This document shows, in pieces, positions 1 through 61,900 of a stretch of DNA of 64,000 nucleotides. A program made the translations under genes and the position numbers. Source of the stretch: Candidatus Nomurabacteria bacterium. GTDB lineage: Bacteria; Patescibacteriota; Minisyncoccia; Phycocordibacterales; UBA9973. The stretch lies in assembly GCA_023267215.1 (NCBI GenBank), contig JAHFNS010000001.1, forward strand, positions 98,736-162,735, read 5' to 3'. Position 1 is the stretch's first letter, and every line of letters begins with the position of its first letter. The notes beneath the pieces were generated by a model. That model did not search any database. It was not told the DNA's origin and saw only the letters and a list, made by a program, of their open reading frames with translations.

Positions 1-518
1 AAATTTTTGAGCTTTTAGAAGAGGGGAAGAATCTAGCATTAGTTTCAGATGCTGGTACTCCGACTATCTCTGACCCTGGAGCAATGCTTATTTCTAAAAT
101 AAAAGAAAAGTTTTCCCAGAAGACGGTCTTCGGGGAAGAACCCCGAAGACCGTCTTCTGGGGTAGAAGTTATTCCAATTCCTGGAGCTTCTGCAGTTATT
201 GCTGCACTTTCTGCTTCTGGACTTCCAACGCATGAATTCACATTTCTAGGATTTCTTCCACACAAAAAAGGAAGAGAAACTTTATTTAAAGAAATTGCTG
301 AATCAAAACGCACAATGGTTTTCTATGAATCCCCACATCGCATTTTAAAAACATTAGAATCCTTAAATAAATTTTGTCCAAATAAAAAAGTTTGTATTGC
401 TCGCGAAATCACTAAGATTTATGAAGAGTTTAAAACAGGTACACCACAAGAACTTTTAGAATATTTAAAAAAAAATCCCGTAAAACAAAAAGGGGAGTTT
501 ACAGTATTAGTTTCTTAA
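1..518 (+). CDS. rsmI: 16S rRNA 2'-O-methyltransferase RsmI, C-terminal part (5' end lies outside window)
   Basis: Frame 3 is open from the window edge. Translation gives LEEGKNLALVSDAGTPTISDPG ... VIPIPGASAV ... FYESPHR, typical RsmI motifs. Track ORF 84..518 is the internal-Met tail. Carries an in-frame 48-bp palindrome at 115..162. Confidence 0.85.
   Translation, partial: IFELLEEGKNLALVSDAGTPTISDPGAMLISKIKEKFSQKTVFGEEPRRPSSGVEVIPIPGASAVIAALSASGLPTHEFTFLGFLPHKKGRETLFKEIAESKRTMVFYESPHRILKTLESLNKFCPNKKVCIAREITKIYEEFKTGTPQELLEYLKKNPVKQKGEFTVLVS
115..162. repeat. family A GC-rich palindromic element, copy 1 (in rsmI, in-frame)
   Basis: cccagaagacggtcttcgggg-aagaa-ccccgaagaccgtcttctggg. Perfect 21-bp inverted arms. 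Confidence 0.8.
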
Positions 519-4855: not shown

Positions 4856-5944
4856 ATGAACATATTGATTTTTATAATAATTTTATTAGTTTTGGTGCTT
4901 GTTCATGAATTTGGGCATTTTTTTACTGCTAAAAGATTTGGTATTAGAGTAGATGAATTTGGTTTTGGTTTTCCTCCAAAATTATTTGGTATAAAAAAAG
5001 GGGAGACAGAATATAGTATTAATCTTCTACCAATTGGTGGATTTGTGAAAATTTTTGGCGAAGATCCAAACGAAGAAAATACAGTAGGACCAGATGCTGC
5101 TAGGAGTTTTGTAAATAAACCAAAATATAAACAAGCAATAGTTCTTTTCGCTGGAGTCTTTGCGAATTTTTTACTTGCTTGGCTTTTGTTTTCTATTGGT
5201 TTTATATCAGGACTTCCTACTTCTGTTGGTAGTGAGCCGAAAGATTATAAAATGGAGAATGTGCATCTTGTTGTTCTTTCTGTTTTGCCAAATTCTCCAG
5301 CTCTAGCTGCTGGTCTAAAAACCGGAGATAAAATAGTTTATATAAAAAGTGGAGATGCTGTCACAGATCAAATCAGCCCTGAGACTGTCAAATCTTTTGT
5401 TGCTTTAGGTAAACAATTAGACATGGCATATCTTCGTGGCAATGACCCGACTTATAATATGATCCAGGTTATTCCAAAAGATACTAATGGTACTTATGCA
5501 ATAGGTATTTCTATGGATCAGATAGGGACCGTTAAATTGCCCTTTTTTAATGCCTTTTGGGAGGGTTTAAAATTAGACTGGTCTGTTACAGAAGGTACTG
5601 TTGTGGGGCTTTATACGCTCATTGTAGGGGGTATTATGGGTAAAGGAAGCTTTGCGAACGTTACTGGTCCTGTCGGAATGGTGGGTATCGTAGGTAATGC
5701 GTATCAATTTGGTTTTGTATATTTATTCTCTTTCGCTGCTTTAATTTCAGTGAATTTGGCGATAATAAATCTGATTCCATTTCCAGCCCTAGATGGTGGT
5801 CGTCTCTTCTTTTTACTTATTGAAAAAATAAAAGGTTCTCGTATGAATCCTAAATTTGCAAATACTGCAAACATGGTGGGCTTTGCAATTTTAATTATTC
5901 TCATGCTTCTTGTCACTTATCATGATGTAGTTAAATTATTTTGA
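4856..5944 (+). CDS. rseP: RIP metalloprotease RseP (site-2 protease, M50) with PDZ domain
   Basis: HEFGHFFTAKRFG (HExxH) in TM1, PDZ-like LAAGLKTGDKIV, C-terminal LDGG motif (ALDGGRLFF). Confidence 0.85.
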   Translation: MNILIFIIILLVLVLVHEFGHFFTAKRFGIRVDEFGFGFPPKLFGIKKGETEYSINLLPIGGFVKIFGEDPNEENTVGPDAARSFVNKPKYKQAIVLFAGVFANFLLAWLLFSIGFISGLPTSVGSEPKDYKMENVHLVVLSVLPNSPALAAGLKTGDKIVYIKSGDAVTDQISPETVKSFVALGKQLDMAYLRGNDPTYNMIQVIPKDTNGTYAIGISMDQIGTVKLPFFNAFWEGLKLDWSVTEGTVVGLYTLIVGGIMGKGSFANVTGPVGMVGIVGNAYQFGFVYLFSFAALISVNLAIINLIPFPALDGGRLFFLLIEKIKGSRMNPKFANTANMVGFAILIILMLLVTYHDVVKLF

Positions 5945-6003
5945 CCTCACCTAGAGCCCCTCTCCTTAATAAGGAGAGGGTGGCCAAAGGTCGGGTGAAG
6001 TGT
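5945..6003. repeat. family B palindromic element, copy 1 (intergenic rseP / Cys-rich gene)
   Basis: gacctcacc-tagag-cccctctcctt-aat-aaggagaggg-tgg-ccaaaggt-cgggtgaagtg. Core has perfect 10-bp arms around aat. Confidence 0.7.
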
Positions 6004-7726: not shown

Positions 7727-7729
7727 ATT

Positions 7730-7770
7730 CCCCTAAGCTGGGCTTAGGGGACAGAAGCCCAGCTTAGGGG
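7730..7770. repeat. family C GC-rich nested palindrome (intergenic Cys-rich gene / mraY)
   Basis: cccctaagc-tgg-gcttagggg-acag-aagcccagcttagggg. The left 21-mer is itself palindromic, and its reverse complement recurs 3'. Confidence 0.65.
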
Positions 7771-7798
7771 AAGTCTAAAAATATGTTAATATAACTAT

Positions 7799-31881: not shown

Positions 31882-32550
31882 TTATAAATCACTTTTTCCA
31901 ATATTACATACTGAGCAAAGTGTCTGTAAATTTTCTAAAACAGTTTCTCCACCTTTCGCCCATGCCTTTATGTGGTCAACATGCAGAATAATACTTGGGT
32001 CAGTTGCAGGTGACCTCCCACAATTTTTACATTTAAAATTGTCTTGTCTCATAACAACAAAGCGGAGTCTCCAATTTATTGTTCTTGATGTTTTATGTTT
32101 TGTGCTTGGCTCAATTCTAAATTTTTTTACTGCTTCTTCAGAAGAGACATCTTCTTCTTTGTTCATATATGTAACAAATTTCTCTAATGCTTTATGCCAA
32201 CCACCAAAACGTCTTGCGTAGGTATCAACACTGTATTTTGAAAATGGTTTCAGAATATCCCCATATTTAGGTTGTTTGCCAAGTTTTATCCAAATTTCTT
32301 CTAGATTCTTAAACAACTCTTCTTCTGGGAGATTCATTGGTGTTCTATTATCTTTAAGATTGGCTTTTTCTAACGCAGTATGCCAACTTCCAAAACGACG
32401 AATATAAGTTGTACTATGAAATTTCCCTTTTTTATCTTGTTCATCACGAGTAATTGAAGGTTTATTCAACATTAAAGCAAGTCCCCTTAAATCAGCGACC
32501 AGTTCTTCGTCTGTAACACCACGATGATAATCTTCGAGTTCAAATTTCAT
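31882..32550 (-). CDS. HNH endonuclease with two N-terminal HNH-associated repeats
   Basis: C-terminal CKNCGRS...HVDHIKAWAKGG...NLQTLCSVCN (HNH). Repeats RRFGSWHTALEKANL / RRFGGWHKALEKFV. Start taken at MKFELEDY to avoid overlap (track ORF runs to 32664). Confidence 0.8.
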   Translation of the reverse strand: MKFELEDYHRGVTDEELVADLRGLALMLNKPSITRDEQDKKGKFHSTTYIRRFGSWHTALEKANLKDNRTPMNLPEEELFKNLEEIWIKLGKQPKYGDILKPFSKYSVDTYARRFGGWHKALEKFVTYMNKEEDVSSEEAVKKFRIEPSTKHKTSRTINWRLRFVVMRQDNFKCKNCGRSPATDPSIILHVDHIKAWAKGGETVLENLQTLCSVCNIGKSDL

Positions 32551-32584
32551 AATTTTATTATACCAAAATAACGTCTTTCTAGTG

Positions 32585-33154
32585 TTATTGTTCAGCAATC
32601 TCTTCAATAGATTCTCTGGTAATTCTAATTTTTTTTCCAGTCGGAAGAGTGATAACCGATTCAATTTTTAGAATTAATTCTAAAGGTTCTAATTGGTTAT
32701 CTTCTACTCGAATTTCTCCTGTTTTCTCATCAAGCACAACATGAGCTTTTTCAGAATTTCCATCTCGTTTGCCAATTATTAAATGCATATCGCCAACTTC
32801 TTTGGAGCGCGATTCAATAAATAGTCCCTCGGCGTCCAATCGATTTTTAAAAGTTTTGGTTGAGCTCTTTATATGATTCAAGATTTCATCTATAAAAATT
32901 CTCCAAATCTCAAGCCTTGTGTGTGCAGTCATTACATTATGAAAACCTGGTTTAAGTTGTGTTCTCAATCCACTGTTTAACTTTTTAAACTTTAGTTGTA
33001 AAATTTCATCATCTAAATTTTTTACAATATCAGTAAGCTCAGACCTAATTTTAGATTCAACGCTTTCTAATCTTTCTCTCTCTAAAAGATCTTGACCGCC
33101 CAATAAATAGCATCTATCTATTTCTTGTAATAATAATTTTAAAATATGTTCCAT
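32585..33154 (-). CDS. hypothetical protein (189 aa)
   Basis: ORF between the HNH gene and tRNA-Gln. No motif recognised. Confidence 0.45.
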   Translation of the reverse strand: MEHILKLLLQEIDRCYLLGGQDLLERERLESVESKIRSELTDIVKNLDDEILQLKFKKLNSGLRTQLKPGFHNVMTAHTRLEIWRIFIDEILNHIKSSTKTFKNRLDAEGLFIESRSKEVGDMHLIIGKRDGNSEKAHVVLDEKTGEIRVEDNQLEPLELILKIESVITLPTGKKIRITRESIEEIAEQ

Positions 33155-33553: not shown

Positions 33554-33627
33554 TGGCTGGGAGGCTTGGAATCGAACCAAAATTGATCGCTTCAAAGGCG
33601 ACTGTCCTACCGTTAGACGACCTCCCA
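33554..33627 (-). tRNA. tRNA-Gln (anticodon UUG), CCA encoded
   Basis: Reverse complement reads TGGGAGG TC GTCT AACGGTA GGAC A GTCGC CTTTGAA GCGAT CAATT TTGGT TCGATTC CAAGC CCTCCCA G CCA. It has U1-A72, G73, GG in the D-loop, a TTCGATT T-loop, and anticodon loop CU-UUG-AA. Confidence 0.8.
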
Positions 33628-36454: not shown

Positions 36455-37462
36455 TCAAATTTTTTTTAAAAAATCACGAATTATTTTTTCTACTTCTTTA
36501 GAATTTTCTGTCTCCATTAATTTTGCACGTAATTCTTTCGCACCAGGAAAATCATTTACATACGCTTTGAAATGTTTTTTCATGACAGCAAAACTTTTAT
36601 GTTTTGGTATCGCAAGCTCTTTATCAAAAAGTTGAGTGTGTTCCATGAGAACTTCTAGTTTTTCTTCTACCCTCTCCTTTTCAAGGAGAGGGGTTGGGGG
36701 TGAGGTGAATACCCAAGGATTTCCAAAAACTCCCCTACCTATCATTATTCCATCACAACCATACTTTTCTGCTTTCTCTTCCGCATCTTTTAAATCTTTA
36801 ACATCACCATTGCCAATGAGCAAAATATCTTTGCCACTTTTTTTAATAAGCTCTTTTATTTTTTTAATGTAATCCCAATTTGCAGGAACGAGAGATAATT
36901 CTTTTGTTGTTCGTAAATGAATCGTCAAAGCAGAAATATCTTCCTTTAATAATTCTGGTATCCAATTATCAATATCTTCCCTATTGAAACCAACTCTCGT
37001 TTTGACAGACACTGGGATATGAAGCCCTGCAGATTTTATTCCAGCATGAGCAGCCTGTATTATTTTTCTAGCAAGTTGTGGTGTCTTTATCAAACCCGAG
37101 CCAGCACCTTGAGCAACGACAGATTTGTCTGGACAACCCATATTTATATCTATTCCATCAAAACCGAGACTAGCAATATAACTACAAGCTTTTTCCATAT
37201 TCTCCGGGTTAGCACCGAAAACTTGAGCGATGATAGGTCTCTCAGCTTCAGAATATTTTAAAATGTGAGAAAGTTTCTTTTTGGCGAGTTTATTACACAA
37301 GCCATCAGCCGCCACAAACTCTGTCCAGAAAACGACGCTGTTTCTATTTTCTCTGTTCTTACTATATTTCGCCAAGATACGACGAAAAGCAATGTCAGTG
37401 ACATCCGACATCGGTGCAAGGCAGAAAAATGGTTTTTTAAGTTTTCTCCAGAAATTTTGCAT
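36455..37462 (-). CDS. tRNA-dihydrouridine synthase (DusB-like)
   Basis: FCLAPMSDVTDIAFRRI, MIGRGVFGNPWVF, TIM-barrel FMN motifs. Carries an in-frame palindromic element (TSPPTPLLEKERV) right after GNPWVF. Confidence 0.85.
   Translation of the reverse strand: MQNFWRKLKKPFFCLAPMSDVTDIAFRRILAKYSKNRENRNSVVFWTEFVAADGLCNKLAKKKLSHILKYSEAERPIIAQVFGANPENMEKACSYIASLGFDGIDINMGCPDKSVVAQGAGSGLIKTPQLARKIIQAAHAGIKSAGLHIPVSVKTRVGFNREDIDNWIPELLKEDISALTIHLRTTKELSLVPANWDYIKKIKELIKKSGKDILLIGNGDVKDLKDAEEKAEKYGCDGIMIGRGVFGNPWVFTSPPTPLLEKERVEEKLEVLMEHTQLFDKELAIPKHKSFAVMKKHFKAYVNDFPGAKELRAKLMETENSKEVEKIIRDFLKKI
36655..36725. repeat. family B palindromic element, copy 3 (inside dus, in-frame)
   Basis: ttcacctcaccccc-aa-cccctctcctt-ttc-aaggagaggg-tagaggaaaaa. 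Read in-frame as FTSPPTPLLEKERVEE on the minus strand. Confidence 0.7.
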
Positions 37463-41507: not shown

Positions 41508-43781
41508 ATGAAATTACTCATTGTTGAATCACCATCAAAAGCAAAGACTATAGAAAAATATTTAGAAGGCGCATACACAGTGCGTGCTTCTATTGGACAT
41601 ATTCGTGATTTACCTAAATCAAACAAACAAGCGATAGATATCGAAGGTGGTTTCATTCCACATTATGAAATTTCAAAAGGTAAAGAAAAAGTTGTTCATG
41701 AACTTCAATCACTCGGAGAAAAAGCCACAGAGATATTGTTAGCGACAGACCCCGACCGTGAAGGAGAAGCTATAGCTTGGCATATAGAAGAACTTTTAAA
41801 GAAAGATAAAAAAATAAAAGCTAAAGCGAAACGTGTGACATTCCATGAAATAACAAAGGAAGCCGTAGAAGAAGCATTGAAACATCCTCGAAACATAGAC
41901 ACTGCTTTGAGAAAAGCTCAAGAAGCAAGACGTGTCCTCGACAGACTCGTAGGATATGATCTGTCTGGTTTGATATGGAAAAAAGTACGCTATGGACTCT
42001 CTGCAGGACGTGTTCAATCCCCTGCACTCCGCATAATAATGGAACGCGAAAGAGAAATCCGTGCTTTTGTGCCAGAGAAATATTGGAGAATATTAGGACT
42101 TTTTGAAACACCCAAAAAAGGAAAACTTACTTTAAATTGTTCTATTGAGCCAAGAGATGAAAAAGTTGTAGAAAAAATAATGGAAGAAGGCAATAGTAAA
42201 GATTGGTTTGTAACTGATGTCAAAGAGGGAGAGCAAAAGAGAGTTCCTCGTGCTCCGTTCACTACTTCCACATTACAACAGACAGCGAGCTCTCGCCTTG
42301 GATATTCCCCTTCTAGGACAATGCAAATAGCTCAAAAACTTTATGAAGCTGGACATATCACATACATGCGTACAGATAGTACAAATTTATCTCTTGTCGC
42401 TCAATCACAGATAGTTTCTATGATTGAAAAAAAATATGGGAAAAATTTTGCACAAGCAAGAATTTATAAAACAAAATCAAAAAATGCCCAAGAAGCACAC
42501 GAAGCTATTCGCCCAACTCATATAGAAAATATGTTGGCTGGCACAGATGAACAACAAAGACTTTATAGATTAATCTGGGAGCGTGCTGTTTCTTCACAAA
42601 TGGCAGATGCGAAATTATTGAAGACAAAAATAAGTGCGAATATAGCTTACAGCCCCAAAGACGGTCTTCGGGGAGCTCCCCGAAGACCGTCTTTGGGGCA
42701 ATTCGAATTCCCAGACTTCACAGCTGTCGGTTCCAGAATTCTTTTCTCTGGTTGGCTAGAAGTTGATAGAGATAGTGTCGGAGAAGATTTTGAATTACCA
42801 GAAGTAAAGAAGGGAGACAAATTAAAATTGTTAAATCTCGTTAATGAAGAAAAATTTACCGAACCACCAAATAGATATAGTGAAGCAGGCCTCATTAAAG
42901 AACTCGAGGCACGAGACATAGGTAGACCTTCTACTTATGCTTCCATAATGAAAACATTGGAAGACAGAGAATATGTCAGGAAAGAAGGCAAAACTCTATT
43001 CCCTACAGACGTCGGTGAAGTCGTGTCAGACTTCTTAGAAAATAATTTTGCAAATTATATCTCTGATACATTCACAGCTGAGATGGAAGACGAGCTAGAT
43101 GAAATATCTCGTGGTGAACGTGAATACGAAAAAACATTAAAAGATTTCTATGGACCATTCTTAAAAGAAATAAAAATAAAAGAAAAGTTAGAAAAAGCGA
43201 CAAATTTAGGAGAAGCACCAGAAGGTATAGTGTGTCCAAAATGTGGCAGTAAAATGATAGTGAAGCTTTCTCGTGCAGGAAAATTCTATTCTTGTATTAA
43301 ATATCCAGATTGTGACGGAGCCCTTATGATAGACGGTACAGAATTGAAAGGTCCAAAAGAAACTGGTGAGATGTGTCCCCAATGTGGACATAAGAGTGGA
43401 GGAAAAAAAGGAAATGGGGGTGGAGGAAAATTGATCATACGCGAGAGACGTGATGGCACTGGCACATTCATTTCTTGTTCTCGTTATCCAAAATGTAAGT
43501 TCATAAAAAAAGACGAAGCAGAAGAAGCAAAAAAAAGAACTGGGGTTATCTGTCCAACTTGCAAAAAAGGAGATATTTCTGAGCGCAAAGGAAGATTTGG
43601 AGTATTTTATTCCTGTTCAAACTATCCTGATTGTAAATTTGCAATTAAAGCAAAACCCACTGGTAAAACATGTGATAAATGTGGATCTTTAATGATGCAA
43701 GGTACAAAAACTATCCCTGATAGATGCAGTAATAATACATGTTTAAATTATCGACCTGATAAATTAAATAAAATTAAATAA
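41508..43781 (+). CDS. topA: DNA topoisomerase I with C-terminal zinc-ribbon repeats
   Basis: MKLLIVESPSKAKTIEKYLEG...GHIRDLP (TOPRIM), active-site region HITYMRTDS, four CxxC...CxxC zinc ribbons at the C-terminus. Carries an in-frame 46-bp palindrome at 42653..42698. Confidence 0.9.
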   Translation: MKLLIVESPSKAKTIEKYLEGAYTVRASIGHIRDLPKSNKQAIDIEGGFIPHYEISKGKEKVVHELQSLGEKATEILLATDPDREGEAIAWHIEELLKKDKKIKAKAKRVTFHEITKEAVEEALKHPRNIDTALRKAQEARRVLDRLVGYDLSGLIWKKVRYGLSAGRVQSPALRIIMEREREIRAFVPEKYWRILGLFETPKKGKLTLNCSIEPRDEKVVEKIMEEGNSKDWFVTDVKEGEQKRVPRAPFTTSTLQQTASSRLGYSPSRTMQIAQKLYEAGHITYMRTDSTNLSLVAQSQIVSMIEKKYGKNFAQARIYKTKSKNAQEAHEAIRPTHIENMLAGTDEQQRLYRLIWERAVSSQMADAKLLKTKISANIAYSPKDGLRGAPRRPSLGQFEFPDFTAVGSRILFSGWLEVDRDSVGEDFELPEVKKGDKLKLLNLVNEEKFTEPPNRYSEAGLIKELEARDIGRPSTYASIMKTLEDREYVRKEGKTLFPTDVGEVVSDFLENNFANYISDTFTAEMEDELDEISRGEREYEKTLKDFYGPFLKEIKIKEKLEKATNLGEAPEGIVCPKCGSKMIVKLSRAGKFYSCIKYPDCDGALMIDGTELKGPKETGEMCPQCGHKSGGKKGNGGGGKLIIRERRDGTGTFISCSRYPKCKFIKKDEAEEAKKRTGVICPTCKKGDISERKGRFGVFYSCSNYPDCKFAIKAKPTGKTCDKCGSLMMQGTKTIPDRCSNNTCLNYRPDKLNKIK
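42653..42698. repeat. family A GC-rich palindromic element, copy 2 (in topA, in-frame)
   Basis: ccccaaagacggtcttcgggg-agct-ccccgaagaccgtctttgggg. Perfect 21-bp arms, near-identical to copy 1. Confidence 0.8.
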
Positions 43782-46527: not shown

Positions 46528-47856
46528 ATGCCAAAAATGAAAGTACAATCAAATAGTTCTATTGATTTTGAAGTAAACGGCGGAAAAAAGTTAAGCGGAA
46601 CAATAAAGACTAATTTTTCTAAAAACGGCTCTGTTGGGCTTCTTTGTGCTTCCCTTTTAAATAAAGGAAAAACGACCTTGCACGGTATTGCTCGCATTGA
46701 AGAAGTTTATAGAGTGATAGAAATATTGGAAAGCATAGGAGTGAAAATCAATTGGATAAATCAAAACTCTATTCAAATAATTCCTCCCGTAAAATTTAAA
46801 CTAGAAAATATAAATGTTGAATCAGCGGTAAAGACTCGCTCCGTCGTGATGCTTATGGGCCCGATGATTCATTTCTTAAAATCTTTTTCTCTCCCTCATG
46901 CACAAGGCTGTAGCCTAGGCAAACGCACTATTGCTGCTCATACTTATGCCTTAGAAGACCTTGGAATAAAAATAAAAACGACAAATACGAGTTACGAAGT
47001 AAGCACTAAAAAAATAAAACCAGCTGATATTGTGATGTATGAATCTGGAGATACAGCCACTGAAAATATTTTACTTGCTTCCGCTTTAATTTCAGGTATT
47101 ACCAAAATATCTTTTGCTAGTCCTAACTACATGGTACAAGAAATTTGTTTCTTTCTTGAAACTTTAGGTGTACAAATAGATGGAGTTGGCACTTCTACGC
47201 TAACTGTGCATGGAATAAAAGAAATAAACAAAAATATTGAATATTGGAATAGTGAAGACCCTATTGAATCTATGATGTTTATTGCTGCTAGTATTATTAC
47301 TGACTCACATCTCACTATCACCCGAGTGCCTATAGATTTCTTGTCTCTTGAAATGGAAAAACTAAAAAGAATGCATTTAAAATACAAAATTTCAAAAATT
47401 TATTATTCTTATAACGGCAGAACAAAATTGGTAGATATTGAAATCTTTCCTAGTAAATTAAAAGCCTTAGAGGATAAAATCCACGCAAATCATCCAGGGA
47501 TAAATATAGACAATCTTCCCTTCTTTGTACCTATCGCTATAAAAGCACAAGGTCAAACGATGATTCATGATTGGTTTTATGAAGTACGTATGATATATAT
47601 GAATGAATTAAATCGTCTTGGGGCAAATGTTACTCTTGCCGACCAACACCGTCTCTATATTCAAGGTGGAACACCTCTCAAACCTGCACAAATCGTCTGT
47701 CCTCCAGCTCTTCGTCCCTCTATGGTTATACTTATTTCCATGCTTGGAGCTCCCGGCACATCCATTCTTCGCAATGTATATATGATAAATCGTGGCTATG
47801 AAGAAATAGCAAAACGTCTAAACTCCATTGGCGCCGACATTAAGATTTTAAAATGA
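46528..47856 (+). CDS. murA: UDP-N-acetylglucosamine 1-carboxyvinyltransferase MurA
   Basis: EPT/EPSP-synthase fold. N-terminal KLSGTIKTNFSKNGSVGLLCASLL, 442 aa. Stop overlaps miaA start. Confidence 0.8.
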   Translation: MPKMKVQSNSSIDFEVNGGKKLSGTIKTNFSKNGSVGLLCASLLNKGKTTLHGIARIEEVYRVIEILESIGVKINWINQNSIQIIPPVKFKLENINVESAVKTRSVVMLMGPMIHFLKSFSLPHAQGCSLGKRTIAAHTYALEDLGIKIKTTNTSYEVSTKKIKPADIVMYESGDTATENILLASALISGITKISFASPNYMVQEICFFLETLGVQIDGVGTSTLTVHGIKEINKNIEYWNSEDPIESMMFIAASIITDSHLTITRVPIDFLSLEMEKLKRMHLKYKISKIYYSYNGRTKLVDIEIFPSKLKALEDKIHANHPGINIDNLPFFVPIAIKAQGQTMIHDWFYEVRMIYMNELNRLGANVTLADQHRLYIQGGTPLKPAQIVCPPALRPSMVILISMLGAPGTSILRNVYMINRGYEEIAKRLNSIGADIKILK

Positions 47857-48794
47857 ATACACCTCACCCTAACCCTCTCCTTAATAAGGAGAGAGGAAAA
47901 ATCTTACCAAAGGTTATTGTGATATTAGGCTCAACAGCTACTGGAAAGAGTGACCTAGCTGTTAAAATTGCCAAAAAAATCAATGGAGAAGTTATTTCAG
48001 CTGATTCTAGACAAGTCTACAAAAGTCTTGATATAGGCACAGGTAAAATAAGTAAAAAAGAAATGAAGGGTATCCCTCATCATTTGCTCGATGTCGTAAA
48101 TCCAAAGAAAAAATTTACAGTCGCAGAATATCAAAAGAAAGCAATCCACGCCATGGCTCTGATTGTAAAAAAAGGCAAAACTCCCATAATTTGCGGAGGC
48201 ACGGGATTTTATATTGATGCTATTACCAAAAGCACCGTTTTTCCTGAAGTTCCACCGAATTTAAAATTAAGAAAAACTTTAGAAAAAAAATCAGCTCTAG
48301 AGCTTTTTAAAATGTTAATGAAATTAGATAAAAGACGTGCGAAAGATATAAAAGATAAAAATGAAATAAATAATAAAGTCAGATTAATAAGAGCAATAGA
48401 GATAGTTAAAGCTATCGGTAAAGTTCCAAAATTACAAAGTGACACAAACTCTGCCATGGCAAAAAATGTGTCACTATATGAGTTTATAAAAATTGGATTA
48501 TATTTATCGCCAGATGAATTAAAAAAGAAAATAGAAAAAAGAGTTAAAAAAATGTTTAAAGATGGATTGTTGAATGAAATAAAAAAATTAAAGAAAGCAG
48601 GAATATCCGAAAAAAGATTAAAAGAGTTTGGTTTTGAATACGATTCCCCTACTTATGAAAAAGTGGTGAAAGAAACCATAAAATACACCAAACGCCAAAT
48701 GACTTGGTTTAAGAGAGATAAAGAAATTAAATGGATTGATGCCTCAACACAAACAAATTTAGAAAAAATAATTAATGATTTACAAAAGGATTAA
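47853..48794 (+). CDS. miaA: tRNA dimethylallyltransferase MiaA
   Basis: P-loop GSTATGKSDLAVKIAK, DSRQVYKSLDIGTGK, HHLLDV. N-terminal 22 residues are encoded by a palindromic element. An in-frame GTG at ~47919 is an alternative start. Confidence 0.85.
   Translation: MNTPHPNPLLNKERGKILPKVIVILGSTATGKSDLAVKIAKKINGEVISADSRQVYKSLDIGTGKISKKEMKGIPHHLLDVVNPKKKFTVAEYQKKAIHAMALIVKKGKTPIICGGTGFYIDAITKSTVFPEVPPNLKLRKTLEKKSALELFKMLMKLDKRRAKDIKDKNEINNKVRLIRAIEIVKAIGKVPKLQSDTNSAMAKNVSLYEFIKIGLYLSPDELKKKIEKRVKKMFKDGLLNEIKKLKKAGISEKRLKEFGFEYDSPTYEKVVKETIKYTKRQMTWFKRDKEIKWIDASTQTNLEKIINDLQKD
47858..47915. repeat. family B palindromic element, copy 2 (5' end of miaA)
   Basis: acacctcaccctaa-ccctctcctt-aat-aaggagagagg-aaaaatctta-ccaaaggtt. 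Shares cctcacc, the core palindrome and ccaaaggt with copy 1. Confidence 0.7.
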
Positions 48795-56531: not shown

Positions 56532-56801
56532 TTAAAATTTATATCCTTCAGATTTTAAAATTCTTTTCTTTTTATCCGGCCCCCGATTGTATCCACCAAG
56601 CCCTCCATCAGAACGAATGACTCTATGGCAGGGAATTTTAGGGTTGTGATTTCTATTTAAAATATTCCCAACTGCCCGACTCGCTTTTATATTCCCTGCT
56701 CTCCTCGCCACTTCCTTATACGTCAAAACTTTTCCTTTTGGAATTTTCTTAACAACTTCATATACTTTTTCTGAAAAAGATTTCATATCTAGAATATTCA
56801 T
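56532..56801 (-). CDS. MGMT-family protein (methylated-DNA-protein-cysteine methyltransferase DNA-binding domain only)
   Basis: VPKGKVLTYKEVARRAGNIKASRAVGNILNRNHNPKIPCHRVIRSDGGLGGY, i.e. PCHRV active-site motif in an 89-aa stand-alone C-terminal domain. Confidence 0.75.
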   Translation of the reverse strand: MNILDMKSFSEKVYEVVKKIPKGKVLTYKEVARRAGNIKASRAVGNILNRNHNPKIPCHRVIRSDGGLGGYNRGPDKKKRILKSEGYKF

Positions 56802-56825
56802 CCCAACAAACTCCAGTTTGTAAGG
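56801..56825. promoter_or_regulatory. palindromic operator-like motif (copy 1 of 3), cccaACAAACTccAGTTTGTaagga
   Basis: Abuts the MGMT start codon. The same 14-16 nt palindrome recurs at ~58881..58904 and ~59214..59238. Confidence 0.45.
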
Positions 56826-56838
56826 ATATTAATAATAC

Positions 56839-57084
56839 TTAATCTTCAATTATTAAAAGTTTACTTTCGCTTTGATGCCCGTTTATGATGCGTATTTTGG
56901 AAAATGGAAGTTTAAAATGCAAAGAAAGAAGCTCTATCACTCGCTTATTGGCTAAATTACGCTCAGCTTTTTCTTTGACAGAAACTAAAAAATGATCTTC
57001 CGATTTTTGTTTCAGAGATTCCTTTTTCGCCTTAGTTGCAACTTTCACATGAATGTATTTCATTTTATTAAAACCAAATCTCAA
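56839..57084 (-). CDS. DUF167 (YggU-like) protein, copy a
   Basis: YIHVKVATKAKKESLKQKSEDHFLVSVKEKAERNLANKRVIELLSLHFKLPFSKIRIINGHQSESKLLII matches the DUF167 pattern. Probable start MKYIHV. Confidence 0.6.
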   Translation of the reverse strand: MRFGFNKMKYIHVKVATKAKKESLKQKSEDHFLVSVKEKAERNLANKRVIELLSLHFKLPFSKIRIINGHQSESKLLIIED

Positions 57085-57463
57085 TAGTAATTAAAATATC
57101 TATGCCATCATAAAGATTTTCCTGAAAGCGGATTTGTTTTTTGAGAGGCAAAATGTATGTCGGAGAATACCAATCCGGGAAAATAGAAGTCGTCCACTCC
57201 GTCTTCTTTATCTTCGCCTTGGCATAGACAGCTCCGAACCCTCTCCTCAGCTTCCCCTTCTGCATTTCCCTAATCTTCGCCGAAATATCCTCCGGCACCC
57301 GCGCAAATCTCCAAGCCGAATCTTTTTCGCTCTTGTCATACCCGTATACCCAAACAATAACCTTACTCTTAAACCTAAAAGTCCCTCTTATCTTCCCTTT
57401 TCTAATTTTTTTAGTTTTAGATTTTAGATTCTTTGGCATTAATTTTCCATACTCCTTTTTCAC
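57068..57463 (-). CDS. DUF1905 family protein, copy a
   Basis: FRFKSKVIVW...AWRFARVPEDISAKIREMQKGKLRRGFGAVYAKAKIKKTEWTTSIFPDWYSPTYILPLKKQIR matches the DUF1905 beta-barrel pattern. Lys-rich N-terminal extension. Confidence 0.6.
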   Translation of the reverse strand: MKKEYGKLMPKNLKSKTKKIRKGKIRGTFRFKSKVIVWVYGYDKSEKDSAWRFARVPEDISAKIREMQKGKLRRGFGAVYAKAKIKKTEWTTSIFPDWYSPTYILPLKKQIRFQENLYDGIDILITIEIWF

Positions 57464-58304
57464 GAAAAGCTGGGATTGTTTGACGTCTAGCCATATTAAT
57501 CAAACTGGCTAAAGATTGTAAATTTTTCTTTGCATATTCTGCCAGAGTTATTATTTCGGCACCCTTTAAATATGCAATTCTTTTATTTAGACTTTCAGAA
57601 AGAGCTAAATATAAAACTTGTTCCATTTCTTTTGTTGATTTTTTAACTTTAAAATTTGAAAAAGTTTTGTAATATATATGCTTTTCTTTATCACGAATAA
57701 TAATATTCGGATAACCAAATTCTTGAAGCTGTAAATTAATAAGGACACGACCGATACGCCCATTACCGTCACAAAATGGATGAATATGTTCAAATTCTAA
57801 ATGAAAATAAGCTATTTTTTTAAAAATATTTATATCATGATCTGTTTTATAATCATTCAATAATACTTCTACCATTCTCATGACATGTTCTGGTGCAGGT
57901 GCAATATGGTTACTGACTCTAACAAATTCACCTGCTTTTCTAAATCTACCAGCAATAGAATCATCTATTCCACCGATAAGTAAGCTATGAATAAAAAGAA
58001 CCGTTTCTTGGTTTAAGACGATGCTATTTTTTTTTGCTTTTATATATTCATAAACTCGAGCTAAATTTTTTGCTTCAAAAACCTCACGGAGTGAATAATT
58101 TTTGGAAACTTCCAAATCTAAAAGAATCTTCTCTGTGTCTGGAAGAGTGAGTGTTGAATTTTCAATTGCATTTGAGTTGTATACGGATTCAGCAAGCTCT
58201 ACTTCGTCTAAAACTGTCAAAAGAGACTCTTTCCCCTTTTTTAGAGAATCAAGAGACTTTTTTAAATTTATTATATTTTGAAACTTCTTATTTACTTTAT
58301 TCAT
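57417..58304 (-). CDS. Fic/DOC-family protein (class II-like, internal inhibitory motif)
   Basis: Fic motif HPFCDGNGRIGRVLINLQL. N-terminal SNAIEN fits the (S/T)xxxE(G/N) inhibitory-helix motif. Confidence 0.8.
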   Translation of the reverse strand: MNKVNKKFQNIINLKKSLDSLKKGKESLLTVLDEVELAESVYNSNAIENSTLTLPDTEKILLDLEVSKNYSLREVFEAKNLARVYEYIKAKKNSIVLNQETVLFIHSLLIGGIDDSIAGRFRKAGEFVRVSNHIAPAPEHVMRMVEVLLNDYKTDHDINIFKKIAYFHLEFEHIHPFCDGNGRIGRVLINLQLQEFGYPNIIIRDKEKHIYYKTFSNFKVKKSTKEMEQVLYLALSESLNKRIAYLKGAEIITLAEYAKKNLQSLASLINMARRQTIPAFREKGVWKINAKESKI

Positions 58305-58420
58305 AAATATATACTTATAGTATAGTCTATTTACTGTTTATTGTCAAGTAAAACGTAAATATGAGGTAAAAACAGCCTATATTTACGTTTTTTAATTTTA
58401 ACCTTTAAATTCTTTGGCAT

Positions 58421-58864
58421 TTATTTATCAAACTGACTAACCCAAAATATTTTTTTATCTTTTAACCATTTTAGTATCTGTTTCTTTAATGCAATTGGGT
58501 AAATTTTTTCTTTCATAAATTGCTCTTTGGAAAATAGAGCAAATTCAATATGGCCTTCTTGGCTTTTTGTTTTAATCTTTTTTACTTCTGTTTTAAATAC
58601 TAAATTTATTTCGTGACGTCTTTGCCCTTCTTCTATATAAATATTATCAGCAACACCAATAAAGGTTATTTTCTTTACTTCTATATTTAATTCTTCCTTA
58701 AATTCACGTTTAATCGCTTTTTCTATTTTTTCATTAAATTCTAAATGCCCACCTGGTAAAAAATAGTTACCATGTTTCTTACTCCTACAAATTAATATTT
58801 TATTATTATCAAAAACAACAGCTCGAATAATAACCTCAACTATATTTTTATATTTATATTTCAT
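58421..58864 (-). CDS. NUDIX hydrolase
   Basis: Nudix box GGHLEFNEKIEKAIKREFKEELNI. Confidence 0.7.
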   Translation of the reverse strand: MKYKYKNIVEVIIRAVVFDNNKILICRSKKHGNYFLPGGHLEFNEKIEKAIKREFKEELNIEVKKITFIGVADNIYIEEGQRRHEINLVFKTEVKKIKTKSQEGHIEFALFSKEQFMKEKIYPIALKKQILKWLKDKKIFWVSQFDK

Positions 58865-58880
58865 ATTTTTATATTCATCC

Positions 58881-58904
58881 TTACAAACTCCAGTTTGTAA
58901 GGAT
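58881..58904. promoter_or_regulatory. palindromic operator-like motif (copy 2), ccttACAAACTccAGTTTGTaagg
   Basis: Perfect 11-bp inverted arms. Lies between the NUDIX start and the ArsR-like stop. Confidence 0.45.
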
Positions 58905-58905
58905 G

Positions 58906-59193
58906 TTAATTAAACTGTTGAAATGATTTTAAAAAGTTAACAAACATTTTACCATATGGAGATAAAGTGTGTTCGACAAACTTACCTTTATATCTTTTAT
59001 TAACTAATCCTGCTTGATGAAGTCTTCGAGTGTGTTCACCTATTGTTTTTGGATTTGCCTTAAGCGTATCAATAATATCATCGAGAGTTATCCCATTTTC
59101 TTTTTGTACAAGGAGCAATATCTCAATGCGATAGTGATTTGCTATCCCTTTTAGATGTCGCTCCATTTGTTTTGCTGTTTTTATTTTTGCCAT
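58906..59193 (-). CDS. ArsR/SmtB-family HTH transcriptional regulator
   Basis: Start taken at MAKIKTAKQMERHLKGIANHYRIEILLLV. wHTH ...TIGEHTRRLHQAGLVNKR. Track ORF extends upstream over the palindrome. Confidence 0.6.
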   Translation of the reverse strand: MAKIKTAKQMERHLKGIANHYRIEILLLVQKENGITLDDIIDTLKANPKTIGEHTRRLHQAGLVNKRYKGKFVEHTLSPYGKMFVNFLKSFQQFN

Positions 59194-59213
59194 ATTTATA
59201 TTATATACTACAT

Positions 59214-59238
59214 CCTTACAAACTCCAGTTTGTTGGGG
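59214..59238. promoter_or_regulatory. palindromic operator-like motif (copy 3), ccttACAAACTccAGTTTGTtgggg
   Basis: ~20 nt upstream of the proposed ArsR-like start, suggesting autoregulation. Confidence 0.45.
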
Positions 59239-59251
59239 TGTTAATTTGATA

Positions 59252-59623
59252 TTAGAACCAGATTTGGATTGAGATTGAGATTTGGATATCATCATAAAGA
59301 TTTTCCTTGTAACGGATTTGTTTTTTGAGAGGCAAAATGTATGTCGGAGAATACCAGTCTGGAAAAATTGAAGTCGTCCACTCCGTCTTCTTTATCTTCG
59401 CTTTGGCATAAATAGCTCCCCATCCCCGTCGTGGCTTCCCTTTCTGCATCTTTTTAATCTTAGCCGAAATGTCCTCCGGTACCCGAGCGAATCTCCAAGC
59501 ACTATCAATATTCTCCCTATTAGTACCGTAGCTCCAAACAATAACTTTACTTTTGAATTTGAAAATCCATTTTATTTTGCTTTGACTAATTTTTTTAGTT
59601 TTAATATTTAAATTCTTTTGCAT
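59252..59623 (-). CDS. DUF1905 family protein, copy b (paralog of 57068..57463)
   Basis: AWRFARVPEDISAKIKKMQKGKPRRGWGAIYAKAKIKKTEWTTSIFPDWYSPTYILPLKKQIRYKENLYD is almost identical to copy a. Underlying DNA is also near-identical over more than 130 nt. Confidence 0.6.
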   Translation of the reverse strand: MQKNLNIKTKKISQSKIKWIFKFKSKVIVWSYGTNRENIDSAWRFARVPEDISAKIKKMQKGKPRRGWGAIYAKAKIKKTEWTTSIFPDWYSPTYILPLKKQIRYKENLYDDIQISISIQIWF

Positions 59624-59671
59624 TTTTTAAAAAAATTCATTCATCTTGTATATATTTTTTTAATATATCAT

Positions 59672-59950
59672 TTAATCTTCAATTACCAAAAGCTTACTTG
59701 GGCTTCTGTGGCCATTTATGATTCTTGTTTTTGACACAGGTATTTTGAAATGAAGAGAGATGAGTTCCAACACTCTTTTATTAGCTAAATTACGCTCGGC
59801 TTTTTCTTTGACCGAAACTTCAAAATGATCCTCAGATTTTTGCTTAAAGGATTCTTTTTTCATTCCAGCCATAACTTTTACGTGAATGTATTTCATTTTA
59901 TTATTTACTTTTTCAATGCAATTGGGTAAATTTTTTCTTTCATAAATCAA
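59672..59950 (-). CDS. DUF167 (YggU-like) protein, copy b
   Basis: MKYIHVKVMAGMKKESFKQKSEDHFEVSVKEKAERNLANKRVLELISLHFKIPVSKTRIINGHRSPSKLLVIED, paralog of 56839..57084. Confidence 0.6.
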   Translation of the reverse strand: MIYERKNLPNCIEKVNNKMKYIHVKVMAGMKKESFKQKSEDHFEVSVKEKAERNLANKRVLELISLHFKIPVSKTRIINGHRSPSKLLVIED

Positions 59951-60037: not shown

Positions 60038-60601
60038 TTATTTAATACAAGCTGCTTTGGCTGTTGTGAAAGCTGTATTAGCTGCTGTTTTAGCATCTTT
60101 CATAGCTACGACAGCTGCATCCTTTGCAGACTTACGAGCTGCCACGGCTGCTGTTTTAGCATCTTTCATAGCTACGACAGCTGCATCCTTTGCAGACTTA
60201 CGAGCTGCTATAGCTGTTGTCATAGCTGTCTTTTTAGCTGTTGCATTAGTCAAGGCTTTTGCTGCTGCTACAGCTATCGTATAAGTGCTATTAGCATCTT
60301 TAATAGCTCCTGTATAAGTAGTATTTGAAGATTTAACTGCTGTAACATAGGTAGTATTAGCATCTTTTACTGCTGCAGTGTAAGTTTTATTAGCATCTTT
60401 TACCGCTACCTTTTTTGCAGTAGTCGCATCTGCAACACATTTTTTTTGATCAACTGTTAATTTAGTTTTAGAAGTCGGTGCACTTGTTGTCGTTGGAGTA
60501 GTTACGTCAGTAGATGTAGTATTTTCTTGTGCATATGCAAGAGAAGATACAAACAATACACCAACCAACAATGATCCAACAAATAATTTTGATTTATTCA
60601 T
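60038..60601 (-). CDS. secreted Ala/Lys/Thr-rich repeat protein
   Basis: Signal peptide MNKSKLFVGSLLVGVLFVSSLAYAQ. Protein repeats KDANxTYTxAV and a perfect 22-aa tandem AARKSAKDAAVVAMKDAKTAAV x2. Confidence 0.6.
   Translation of the reverse strand: MNKSKLFVGSLLVGVLFVSSLAYAQENTTSTDVTTPTTTSAPTSKTKLTVDQKKCVADATTAKKVAVKDANKTYTAAVKDANTTYVTAVKSSNTTYTGAIKDANSTYTIAVAAAKALTNATAKKTAMTTAIAARKSAKDAAVVAMKDAKTAAVAARKSAKDAAVVAMKDAKTAANTAFTTAKAACIK
60081..60212. repeat. 66-bp perfect tandem duplication inside the repeat-protein gene
   Basis: gctgctgttttagcatctttcatagctacgacagctgcatcctttgcagacttacgagctgc occurs twice back to back (period 66 nt). Confidence 0.6.
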
Positions 60602-60724: not shown

Positions 60725-61900
60725 TTATTTTTTTCTATTCTCTCTAAAAGAATCATCAAATATCTCATAATAATCAGCATATATGTATTTCTGTCCATAA
60801 TCTATATTACCCAGAGACTCTAGAATTCCCAATTTCTTAAGTCTTTCAATAACCTTATAAGCACCTGGTGCAGTAAAACCAGTCCACTTCATAATTTCTG
60901 CTACACCAACTATTGGCTGACTAAAAAGTTTTCTAACAATTTCTAATGTTGACTCCGCTGATTTTTTACCTAATTTCTGCATTTTAGCAAAATCACGATC
61001 ACGTAAAGCTGTAATTTTTGTACAAGTTTCAATTGAAGAATCAGCTATTTCTATTACACCTTCAAGAAAAAATTCTAACCAACTATTAATATTAGAATCT
61101 TCGTCGTGATAATCTTGTAATTTCTGATAATATAGTTTTTGATATTTTTTGAAATAACTTGAAAGATATAAAACAGGTAATTCAAGTAACCCGATATGAT
61201 GAATAAACATCGCTATAAGTATTCTACCTGTTCTACCGTTGCCATCAGTAAAGGGATGAATTGTTTCAAATTGCGCATGTAAAAATGCAGCCTTTATTAA
61301 AGAAGGATAATCATCTTTATCGTTAATAAATTTTTCTAAATCATCAAGAGATTTATTCATATCTAAAACAGCAGGAGGAACAAAAGATGCATCACTTGGA
61401 GTTTTTCCTCCAATCCAATTTTGGGAATGACGAAATTCCCCAGGATAAGCATGTTGAGTAGAACGTGCATCCACCATGAGTCTTTCATGTAGCTCTTTAA
61501 TAAATCGTAAAGAAAATGGAAAATCTTTCACACGATCAATGCCATAATTTGCAGCTCTTATGTAGTGTTCTATGTCGTCTACATCTTTATTCTTTCTCTC
61601 TTTTTTTTCAGTGACTGGCGCCGCTACGGCATCTTGCATTGTAGCTTTCGTTCCTTCTATTTGACTTGAATAAGTTGCATCCTTAGCAACGAACATGAAA
61701 ACAAAATAATCTTTATCTGGTAAAAGACGAGTGATACCATCAAGTTTACCAACAAGACGAATTGCTTCCTCATGTTTTTTATACAACTTAGGACTGATAA
61801 AAAAACCTTCCTTGGGTGGAAAATCAAAAGGGGTAAAGGTTTTATATCCTCCTTTTTGCTCTATATATCTACCTATTTTTTGTTTGTTTATATTGCTCAT
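60725..61900 (-). CDS. Fic-family protein, long form with C-terminal winged-helix domain
   Basis: Fic motif HPFTDGNGRTGRILIAMFI. YSSQIEG fits the (S/T)xxxE(G/N) inhibitory motif. 391 aa. Confidence 0.8.
   Translation of the reverse strand: MSNINKQKIGRYIEQKGGYKTFTPFDFPPKEGFFISPKLYKKHEEAIRLVGKLDGITRLLPDKDYFVFMFVAKDATYSSQIEGTKATMQDAVAAPVTEKKERKNKDVDDIEHYIRAANYGIDRVKDFPFSLRFIKELHERLMVDARSTQHAYPGEFRHSQNWIGGKTPSDASFVPPAVLDMNKSLDDLEKFINDKDDYPSLIKAAFLHAQFETIHPFTDGNGRTGRILIAMFIHHIGLLELPVLYLSSYFKKYQKLYYQKLQDYHDEDSNINSWLEFFLEGVIEIADSSIETCTKITALRDRDFAKMQKLGKKSAESTLEIVRKLFSQPIVGVAEIMKWTGFTAPGAYKVIERLKKLGILESLGNIDYGQKYIYADYYEIFDDSFRENRKK

Follow-up and report, generated by a model that had tools for sequence, protein, structure and literature searches.

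A palindromic repeat within the dihydrouridine synthase gene of a Nomurabacteria genome: a probable mobile hairpin element

How does a perfect hairpin come to stand inside the reading frame of a housekeeping gene, and what kind of sequence is it? The question is raised by the gene for a tRNA-dihydrouridine synthase (dus) of a Candidatus Nomurabacteria bacterium (assembly GCA_023267215.1), which lies in a 64-kb stretch of contig JAHFNS010000001.1 (64,000 nucleotides, positions 98,736 to 162,735 of the forward strand) that we call the window. Our analysis indicates that the hairpin is one copy of a repeat, here named family B, which is present at fixed places in some close relatives, absent or replaced in others, and found again in distant phyla and in viral contigs. 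[quoted passage not shown] We infer mobility from presence/absence polymorphisms, not from movement directly observed.

The repeat and its place in the Dus linker

Searched with the pattern CCTCTCCTT-N3-AAGGAGAGG, up to two mismatches being allowed, the window yields three matches (5959-5979, 36671-36691 and 47874-47894, the last with one mismatch in the stem). None of 100 dinucleotide-preserving shuffles of the window matches the pattern, so that three real copies stand against zero expected, and the three core copies listed in an initial annotation of this DNA are borne out. One copy is intergenic, one lies inside dus and one at the 5' end of miaA, making two of the three intragenic:

5944..6001, plus strand: family B copy 1, two-armed, 58 nt, intergenic (pattern match, arm alignment, fold)
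36670..36707, minus strand: family B copy 2, one-armed, inside dus (pattern match, fold, orthologue alignment)
47861..47896, plus strand: family B copy 3, one-armed, with one stem mismatch, in miaA (pattern match, homologue comparison)

Alignment of the three sites shows that the likeness reaches beyond the short core, since 5' of the palindrome all three share an arm ACCTCACC(C), set 3-6 nt from the 10-bp stem. The basic unit of the family is a decamer (A)ACCTCACCCC, 3-5 nt, and a perfect 10-bp hairpin CCCTCTCCTT-NNN-AAGGAGAGGG, and in a long form of about 59 nt this unit is followed by a mini-hairpin and the inverted arm GGGGTGAGGT; in size the family thus runs from the 23-nt hairpin through the 37-nt one-armed unit to the two-armed form of about 59 nt. 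Copy 1 has the layout ACCTCACC-TAGAGC-CCCTCTCCTT-AAT-AAGGAGAGGG-TGGCCAAAGGTCG-GGTGAAGT, and copy 2 reads C-ACCTCACCCC-CAAC-CCCTCTCCTT-GAA-AAGGAGAGGG on the minus strand. Of the two flanks first attributed to the repeat, the 5' arm holds for all three copies, while the 3' sequence ccaaaggt is found in copies 1 and 3 only; its look-alike in copy 2, cccaagga, stands on the other side of the element and consists of NPW codons belonging to dus itself.

Because the palindromic hairpins have a G+C content of about 60% within a window of 31%, they are conspicuous. Copy 1 folds at -29.3 kcal/mol (z -4.2) and copies 2 and 3 at -15 to -20 kcal/mol (z about -2.3 to -2.5), the stem of copy 2 forming its 10 bp with a z of -2.3 for 61 nt. 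Copy 1 occupies the entire spacer between an M50 protease gene and an open reading frame (ORF) at 6008-7726, its first base being the last base of the protease stop codon (5942-5944). A third type of palindrome (TTCCCCTAAGCTGGGCTTAGGGGA...; -35.5 kcal/mol) lies at 7721-7784 and begins at the stop codon of that same ORF.

Two reading frames run through copy 2:

36455..37462, minus strand: dus, tRNA-dihydrouridine synthase, 335 aa (Pfam PF01207, E=4e-60)
36636..36872, plus strand: antisense ORF, 78 aa, through the element (ORF list; wholly antisense to dus)

Within dus, copy 2 abuts the GNPWVF motif that ends the TIM barrel, just where it had initially been placed, and downstream of it the C-terminal helical domain opens with the helix EEKLEVLMEH. 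In the dus frame the element reads TSPPTPLLEKERV, as annotated, followed by EE; these last two residues, at first counted as part of the inserted peptide, are part of the conserved EEKL of Dus and lie outside the element. The insert is likewise in frame as described, yet it stands in place of a native linker of 7-10 residues, so that the net gain is only about 5 residues. The antisense ORF exists and reads TLSFSRRGVGGEV across the element, but it is most likely non-coding, as was supposed, since it lies entirely opposite the Pfam-supported dus; that it is open at all is due in part to the element being free of stop codons on that strand too.

The copy sits in a disordered linker. In the nearest relative of Dus in the PDB, 1vhn, the insert aligns with the variable linker that follows GRPWIF and leads from the TIM barrel to the helical domain. 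An AlphaFold model of Dus, built with 44 homologues, has a mean predicted local distance difference test score (pLDDT) of 82.5 and a predicted template modelling score (pTM) of 0.84; in it the coil of residues 246-260 (FGNPWVFTSPPTPLL) has a lower pLDDT than any other part of the protein, with ten-residue blocks averaging 64 and 58 there, against 95 before and 81 after, and EKERVEE forms an N-terminal extension of the next helix. The model thus supports the surface loop that had been thought plausible, and more specifically a tolerated surface linker between barrel and helical domain. A reading as an intein or self-splicing intron was rejected, the insert having 13 residues, with no Hint or intein Pfam match in Dus and no match to an intron model.

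How could such an element persist in the middle of an enzyme? We suppose that in some lineage of Nomurabacteria one family B copy entered the stretch of dus that encodes the linker between the two domains, copies having perhaps spread by means of a trans-acting enzyme or of templated repair. Since one arm is rich in pyrimidines and the other in purines, the element is free of stops in most frames, and since it has none in the dus frame it would be read through. Being stop-free, and the linker being permissive, it would then be tolerated: TSPPTPLL would serve as a flexible linker and EKERV would lengthen the next helix, the enzyme presumably remaining unharmed. The peptide, on this account, would be translated and neutral to the enzyme.

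Filled, empty and refilled sites in close relatives

We compared 200 orthologous dus alleles (120 database homologues and 80 metagenome loci) and placed 119 close Dus homologues on a tree built without the linker region; the loci gathered from other assemblies or genomes for comparison carry L-numbers below. Homologues of Dus and MiaA at 76-100% identity come from metagenome-assembled genomes of Candidatus Nomurabacteria / Paceibacterota, within the Patescibacteria or candidate phyla radiation (CPR). In 72 of the 119 Dus homologues GNPW(V/F)F and L(I/V)EH are joined by a short, non-palindromic linker of 13-17 residues, such as SGYTPTLEEKL, that bears no resemblance to the element, and orthologues as close as 76-88% identity are without the family B residues. 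The family B peptide is found in seven of the 119; these are scattered in the tree, their neighbours being non-carriers or carriers of a different insert. Presence is therefore polymorphic even among close relatives of the window genome, as the following dus sites make plain:

L203, Dus 86% identical to that of the window: empty, with 21 unrelated bases
L202, 85% identical: complete 59-nt two-armed copy, ACCTCACCCCCAGCCCCTCTCCTTGATAAGGAGAGGGTGGCTGAAAGCCGGATGAGGTG
L201 and L121, 84-87% identical: one-armed form, as in the window
L005 and L169, 55% identical: full-length copy with an identical junction, TTC|ACCTCACC, and non-loop bases as in the window copy

Outside the loop, the elements of L201, L202 and L121 agree with that of the window at 32-33 of 34 positions, the rest of the gene being 82-87% identical. 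Over four orthologous pairs the corresponding figures are 31-33 of 33-34 for the element and 74-87% for the host gene (P=0.004-0.05 per pair). Between the window and L005 the Dus proteins agree at only 55%, yet their elements match at every non-loop base and are joined at the same nucleotide; this sharing implies either independent arrival or strong constraint.

A parallel picture is obtained for copy 3, whose host gene is

47853..48794, plus strand: miaA, tRNA dimethylallyltransferase (Pfam IPPT PF01715, E=2e-57)

The start codon of miaA overlaps the stop codon of murA (ATGA), and copy 3 follows in frame right behind codons 1-2 (ATG AAT), giving a product MN-TPHPNPLLNKERGK-ILPKVIVILG. Among 120 MiaA homologues, 110 begin with M(K/Q)K(Q/P)KVIVILG and have no insert, including all of the nearest at 87% identity, and 10 have it. 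At the DNA level the miaA site is empty in L232 and L201 and filled in L234, so that the L201 genome has the dus copy and lacks the miaA copy. In P0208 the miaA copy is partly deleted, and in L237 (313-400) an extra 6-bp mini-hairpin, CCTGCC-AATTGACG-GGCAGG, is nested between the arm and the main stem, adding ACQLTGR to the MiaA peptide.

These comparisons bear directly on whether there is an element at all. A native, lineage-specific loop of Dus, a chance or low-complexity sequence, or an artefact of metagenome assembly might be suspected, because the sequence is of low complexity (C/T-rich, then A/G-rich), because the window comes from a metagenome-assembled genome and because one independent assembly breaks its contig beside dus. 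But the shuffles give no match, 37 nt are common to the copies, including an arm that lies outside the palindrome, the reading frame is always intact, orthologues exist that lack the residues, and L121, L201, L202, L005 and L169, independent assemblies of different samples, all show the same dus junction. We regard chance, native loop and artefact as refuted on these grounds, and an explanation of this sort as scarcely credible.

As to the broken contig, it belongs to an independent European Nucleotide Archive (ENA) assembly of the same organism, in which a 14.7-kb contig ends beside dus (at about 37500 of the window) and no record exists of the exact Dus product; heterogeneity of alleles at this place may have caused the assembly to break.

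Family B is not the only palindrome found at the dus junction. Folding energies of linkers of 39-51 nt are 0 to -9 kcal/mol; among longer linkers (54-132 nt) most reach -17 to -52 kcal/mol and are near-perfect palindromes of unrelated sequence. One type, TTGTCAAAGACCGTCTTTGACA...TGTCAAAGACGGTCTTTGACAA, encodes CQ..LT peptides, and there are several others. In the clade nearest the window, at 85-90% identity, almost every Dus sequence in the tree has a different insert. The junction behind GNPW(V/F)F is a hot spot, at which palindromes of at least 6-8 families turn over rapidly.

The same behaviour is seen with a second repeat, family A, which occurs in the window as follows:

42636..42713, plus strand: family A palindrome in topA (repeat scan; peptide SPKDGLRGAPRRPSLG)
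106..171, plus strand: family A palindrome in an RsmI-like ORF, 84-518 (-46 kcal/mol; the counterpart in another assembly is a TP_methylase gene)

At least two palindrome families thus sit in coding sequence of this genome, as the initial annotation had proposed, and the checks suggested there all speak for its interpretation. In L201, about 80% identical, the matching place of topA (5392-5459) holds an unrelated, perfect palindrome of 48 nt, which makes topA a second hot spot with replacement of one element by another. In a largely coding genome we would expect such elements to survive only at permissive places, namely domain linkers, protein termini and short spacers, and it would follow that the same sites are refilled repeatedly with different palindromes. 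The pattern of hot spots fits a selection filter of this kind acting in a densely coding genome.

Spread beyond the window and the search for a mover

We scanned 596 Gb, each species being represented by a single genome, for perfect matches to the 20 specified bases of the core. They are present at at least 120 genome loci in at least 8 phyla, where about 0.5 would be expected. The following counts are drawn from 80 of these loci, those for which a record title is listed:

Cyanobacteria, mostly Nostocales: 40
Patescibacteria (Nomura-, Morani-, Gracili- and Saccharibacteria, Kerfeldbacteria): 14
Bacteroidota / Ignavibacteria: 8
Armatimonadota: 5
Chloroflexi: 4
Single loci in Bdellovibrionales, Leptospirales, Desulfobacterales, a gammaproteobacterium and a Bathyarchaeia bin: 5 together, binning errors being possible
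Unclassified 'bacterium': 4

The arm goes with the hairpin in these genomes as well. In 162 copies taken from the genome loci, with up to two substitutions allowed, 156 (96%) are flanked by ACCTCACCC, by GGGTGAGG on the opposite side, or by both, and 58 have both arms. The linkers between arm and stem are typically 5 nt on one side and 12-25 nt on the other, the longer one holding a mini-hairpin such as GTGCC(C)GAA(G)GGCG, and CPR copies show a like design (GTGCCAAAGGCG). The unit of core plus arm is carried moreover by 28 viral contigs of IMG/VR. Outside the window, nine Pfam-supported genes have in-frame copies; their products include FemAB, UvrD, a radical-SAM protein, a Ser/Thr-kinase-GAF-HisK protein, an NB-ARC/TPR protein, MgsA, GcvP and an RNA-ligase/poly(A)-polymerase fusion.

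Three further observations belong here. A 7.3-kb IMG/VR contig classed as viral (L205) has five one-armed units, two of them in long ORFs and in reverse reading (PLSLPRRG..). At eight Nostocales loci (L004, L007, L031, L044, L058, L063, L064 and L094) the unit is embedded in a larger repeat with conserved outer sequences, ..GCGGTTTTCAGTTGAGTSCAATACA.. and ..TGTATTGCAYCCAAG.., which is MITE-like and has the hairpin as its core. Finally, in CPR genomes a UvrD helicase gene (L068:833-4228) and an ORF of 2,666 codons that is open at both locus ends and also encodes NYN domains (L073:3-8000) have inteins in addition to in-frame family B copies, so that several kinds of selfish insert share genes there.

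What would move such an element? Here several findings weigh against mobility as we propose it. The annotated or scanned portions of the window yielded no transposase, Y1 transposases of the REP-associated (RAYT) type included, their only genes of mobile type being an HNH homing endonuclease and a PemK toxin, and no transposase recurs near the 120 family B loci: all-against-all clustering of 1,672 ORFs from these loci returned only ubiquitous families (ABC ATPases, kinases, TPR proteins, glycosyltransferases), and a non-exhaustive search of about 1.3 Mb of loci found no ORF flanked by family B arms. Comparison of filled with empty dus and miaA sites reveals no target-site duplication, and the 14 nt upstream of the arm contain no conserved target motif beyond A/AA. 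The copy number is low: the window has three in 64 kb, and 435 kb of related DNA contain about 10 units of arm plus hairpin. A filled dus site, furthermore, is not simply an empty site plus an insert, since native linker residues are missing and deletion or replacement must therefore have occurred as well. Lastly, the high conservation of the element could signify function in place of mobility.

Some of these findings suggest that the palindromes might turn over by breakage and repair, with no transposition involved. A hairpin or cruciform would be cut, for instance by SbcCD-type nucleases or at stalled forks, and the break would be mended through microhomology from another palindrome. Palindrome-directed insertion or break-and-repair of this sort would explain the identical junctions, the missing native linker and the lack of transposition hallmarks, and it agrees with the presence of different, unrelated perfect palindromes at one and the same junction of dus, and likewise of topA, in genomes about 80% identical, with replacement of the dus linker instead of its simple interruption, with our finding no target-site duplication, target motif or transposase, and with the mini-hairpin nested inside the miaA copy of L237. 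The scheme is nevertheless arrived at purely by reasoning, and it accounts neither for the first arrival of a palindrome at a palindrome-free site nor for near-identical copies in distant phyla and viruses. We consider it unlikely.

Could the hairpin instead be kept for what it does in place? It might act on the mRNA or DNA, for example as a translational pause at a domain boundary, as an RNA-stability or terminator-like element or by sequestering an internal Shine-Dalgarno sequence (AAGGAG paired to CTCCTT), and the peptide would then be a by-product. Such selection would agree with the conservation of the element above its host gene, with stem pairs that are 98.9% Watson-Crick (168 units, 1,680 pairs), with the co-variation of arms and stem in variants such as L167 and L180, which keep their pairing although both parts are altered, with a dus site that is always a domain boundary, and with the many two-armed copies in other phyla that lie between A-runs and T-runs, like bidirectional terminators. 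However, no insert at all is present in 72 of 119 close orthologues, and family B can be replaced by unrelated palindromes, which makes this a weaker rival. Nor do intergenic copies between co-directional genes show an orientation bias (25:21); the stem mismatches, few as they are, show no strand asymmetry (4 G-T versus 7 A-C among 1,680 pairs); a simple scan called no terminator at copy 1; and Rfam 15 had no match in the window at gathering score, nor at E<=1 in four loci with full-length copies. Coding copies do lean forward, by 20:5, a ratio that becomes about 11:4 and is not significant when they are collapsed to distinct genes, as is appropriate because many of them are orthologous. We think selection for a function in place quite improbable.

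A mobile hairpin element remains, then, the reading that we prefer. One may go further and suppose that family B is one member of an undescribed, pan-bacterial and virus-borne class of hairpins, each a conserved decamer arm with a co-varying hairpin, whose hairpin- or palindrome-directed moves need no adjacent transposase, leave no target duplication, home repeatedly to the same junctions and so rewrite linkers and termini of CPR proteins. This wider proposal we advance only tentatively, as a doubtful though interesting extension.

Relation to known elements and consequences

The closest analogy in the effect on proteins is with the RPEs, which, in the part of PMC10969869 that summarises Ogata et al. 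2000, are in-frame inserts in unrelated housekeeping genes of a bacterium with a reduced genome, adding a peptide at sites compatible with the fold, several families coexisting in one genome. Family B likewise lies in frame, and would add a peptide, in dus, miaA and the nine other Pfam-supported genes, and here too several families occur in one genome. By description, however, RPEs are about 100-150 bp long and confined to Rickettsia, whereas family B measures 37-59 nt, occurs in many phyla and in viral contigs, and has here a Patescibacterium as host, where the dus site turns over rapidly between families.

REP sequences and bacterial interspersed mosaic elements (BIMEs) are associated with RAYT transposases (Di Nocera et al. 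2013, PMC3733652; Bertels & Rainey 2011, PMC3116915), and some of their copies are located within ORFs, DNA-repair genes among them (Di Nocera et al. 2013, PMC3733652). With them family B shares a hairpin of 20-40 nt, a conserved 5' tag and the occurrence of single and paired (inverted) forms. Its tag, however, is ACCTCACCCC, with an (A)ACCTCACCC flank in 96% of the 162 copies and with neither GTAG nor CGTC; its copies are few, and no RAYT turned up in those parts of the window that were annotated or scanned. REP sequences are moreover mostly extragenic. Their families are lineage-specific, whereas the family B composite hardly changes from one phylum to another.

MITEs and terminator-like mobile hairpins, such as Correia/NEMIS, RUP and SPRITE, are listed in PMC10969869. 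Like them, family B is non-autonomous and stably structured, lies between genes or is fused in frame, and is flanked by A-runs and T-runs in many copies of other phyla; two-armed copies (58 of 162) have 10-bp inverted outer arms, ACCTCACCCC ... GGGGTGAGGT, window copies 2 and 3 having one arm. Unlike MITEs, family B is much shorter and has no target-site duplication, and a non-exhaustive search of about 1.3 Mb identified no parent insertion sequence.

Palindrome-associated transposable elements (PATE) derived from IS200/IS605 have distinct, subterminal, imperfect hairpins at left and right and insert 3' of a fixed tetra- or pentanucleotide. Family B differs in having a single perfect hairpin, with no conserved nucleotides 5' of the arm beyond A/AA.

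The small dispersed repeats (SDR) of heterocystous cyanobacteria, which Elhai et al. 2008 are said to have described, are reportedly tiny, sit inside hairpin-forming carriers and take each other's place at given sites. Half of our titled loci are from Nostocales and nested mini-hairpins are seen in family B too; the two may be related. We know of no report of SDR in CPR bacteria or as in-frame linker inserts.

The genomes of CPR bacteria are tiny and densely coding, and in the literature searched we found no report of palindromic or MITE elements in CPR, Parcubacteria or Patescibacteria; a search of it for the sequence of the repeat brought up nothing but irrelevant eukaryotic primers. Two properties are unexpected in what is otherwise an element of a known kind, the near-identity of sequence across phyla and viruses and the rapid turnover of unrelated palindromes at fixed codon junctions. 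Several palindrome families lie in genes of housekeeping enzymes (Dus, MiaA, TopA and an RsmI-like protein), and the same codon junctions switch families within about 80-90% sequence identity, so that protein change of the kind known from the RPEs of Rickettsia is met in a second lineage with reduced genomes. Annotators should be warned as well, since spurious antisense ORFs, false N-terminal extensions and contig breaks arise from these elements. Finally, a composite of 37-59 nt is kept near letter-perfect in Cyanobacteria, Bacteroidota, Chloroflexi, Armatimonadota, CPR and viral contigs without a linked transposase, and phyletic profiling now offers a test of what moves and maintains elements so small.

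Other features of the window may be recorded here. The HNH homing endonuclease gene is free-standing (31882-32664), has two 'homing endonuclease associated repeats' (PF18780, PF01844) and lies about 900 nt from a tRNA-Gln gene (33554-33627). A duplicated block at 56770-59950 (D1 and D2, 77-82% identical) contains two DUF1905 genes together with Fic/DOC, ArsR-type helix-turn-helix (HTH) and NUDIX genes, and with a second Fic gene at 60725-61900 it looks like a variable accessory region. In-frame tandem repeats of 66 nt occupy 60054-60374, inside an ORF at 60038-60601 (187 aa) that has no Pfam match above threshold.

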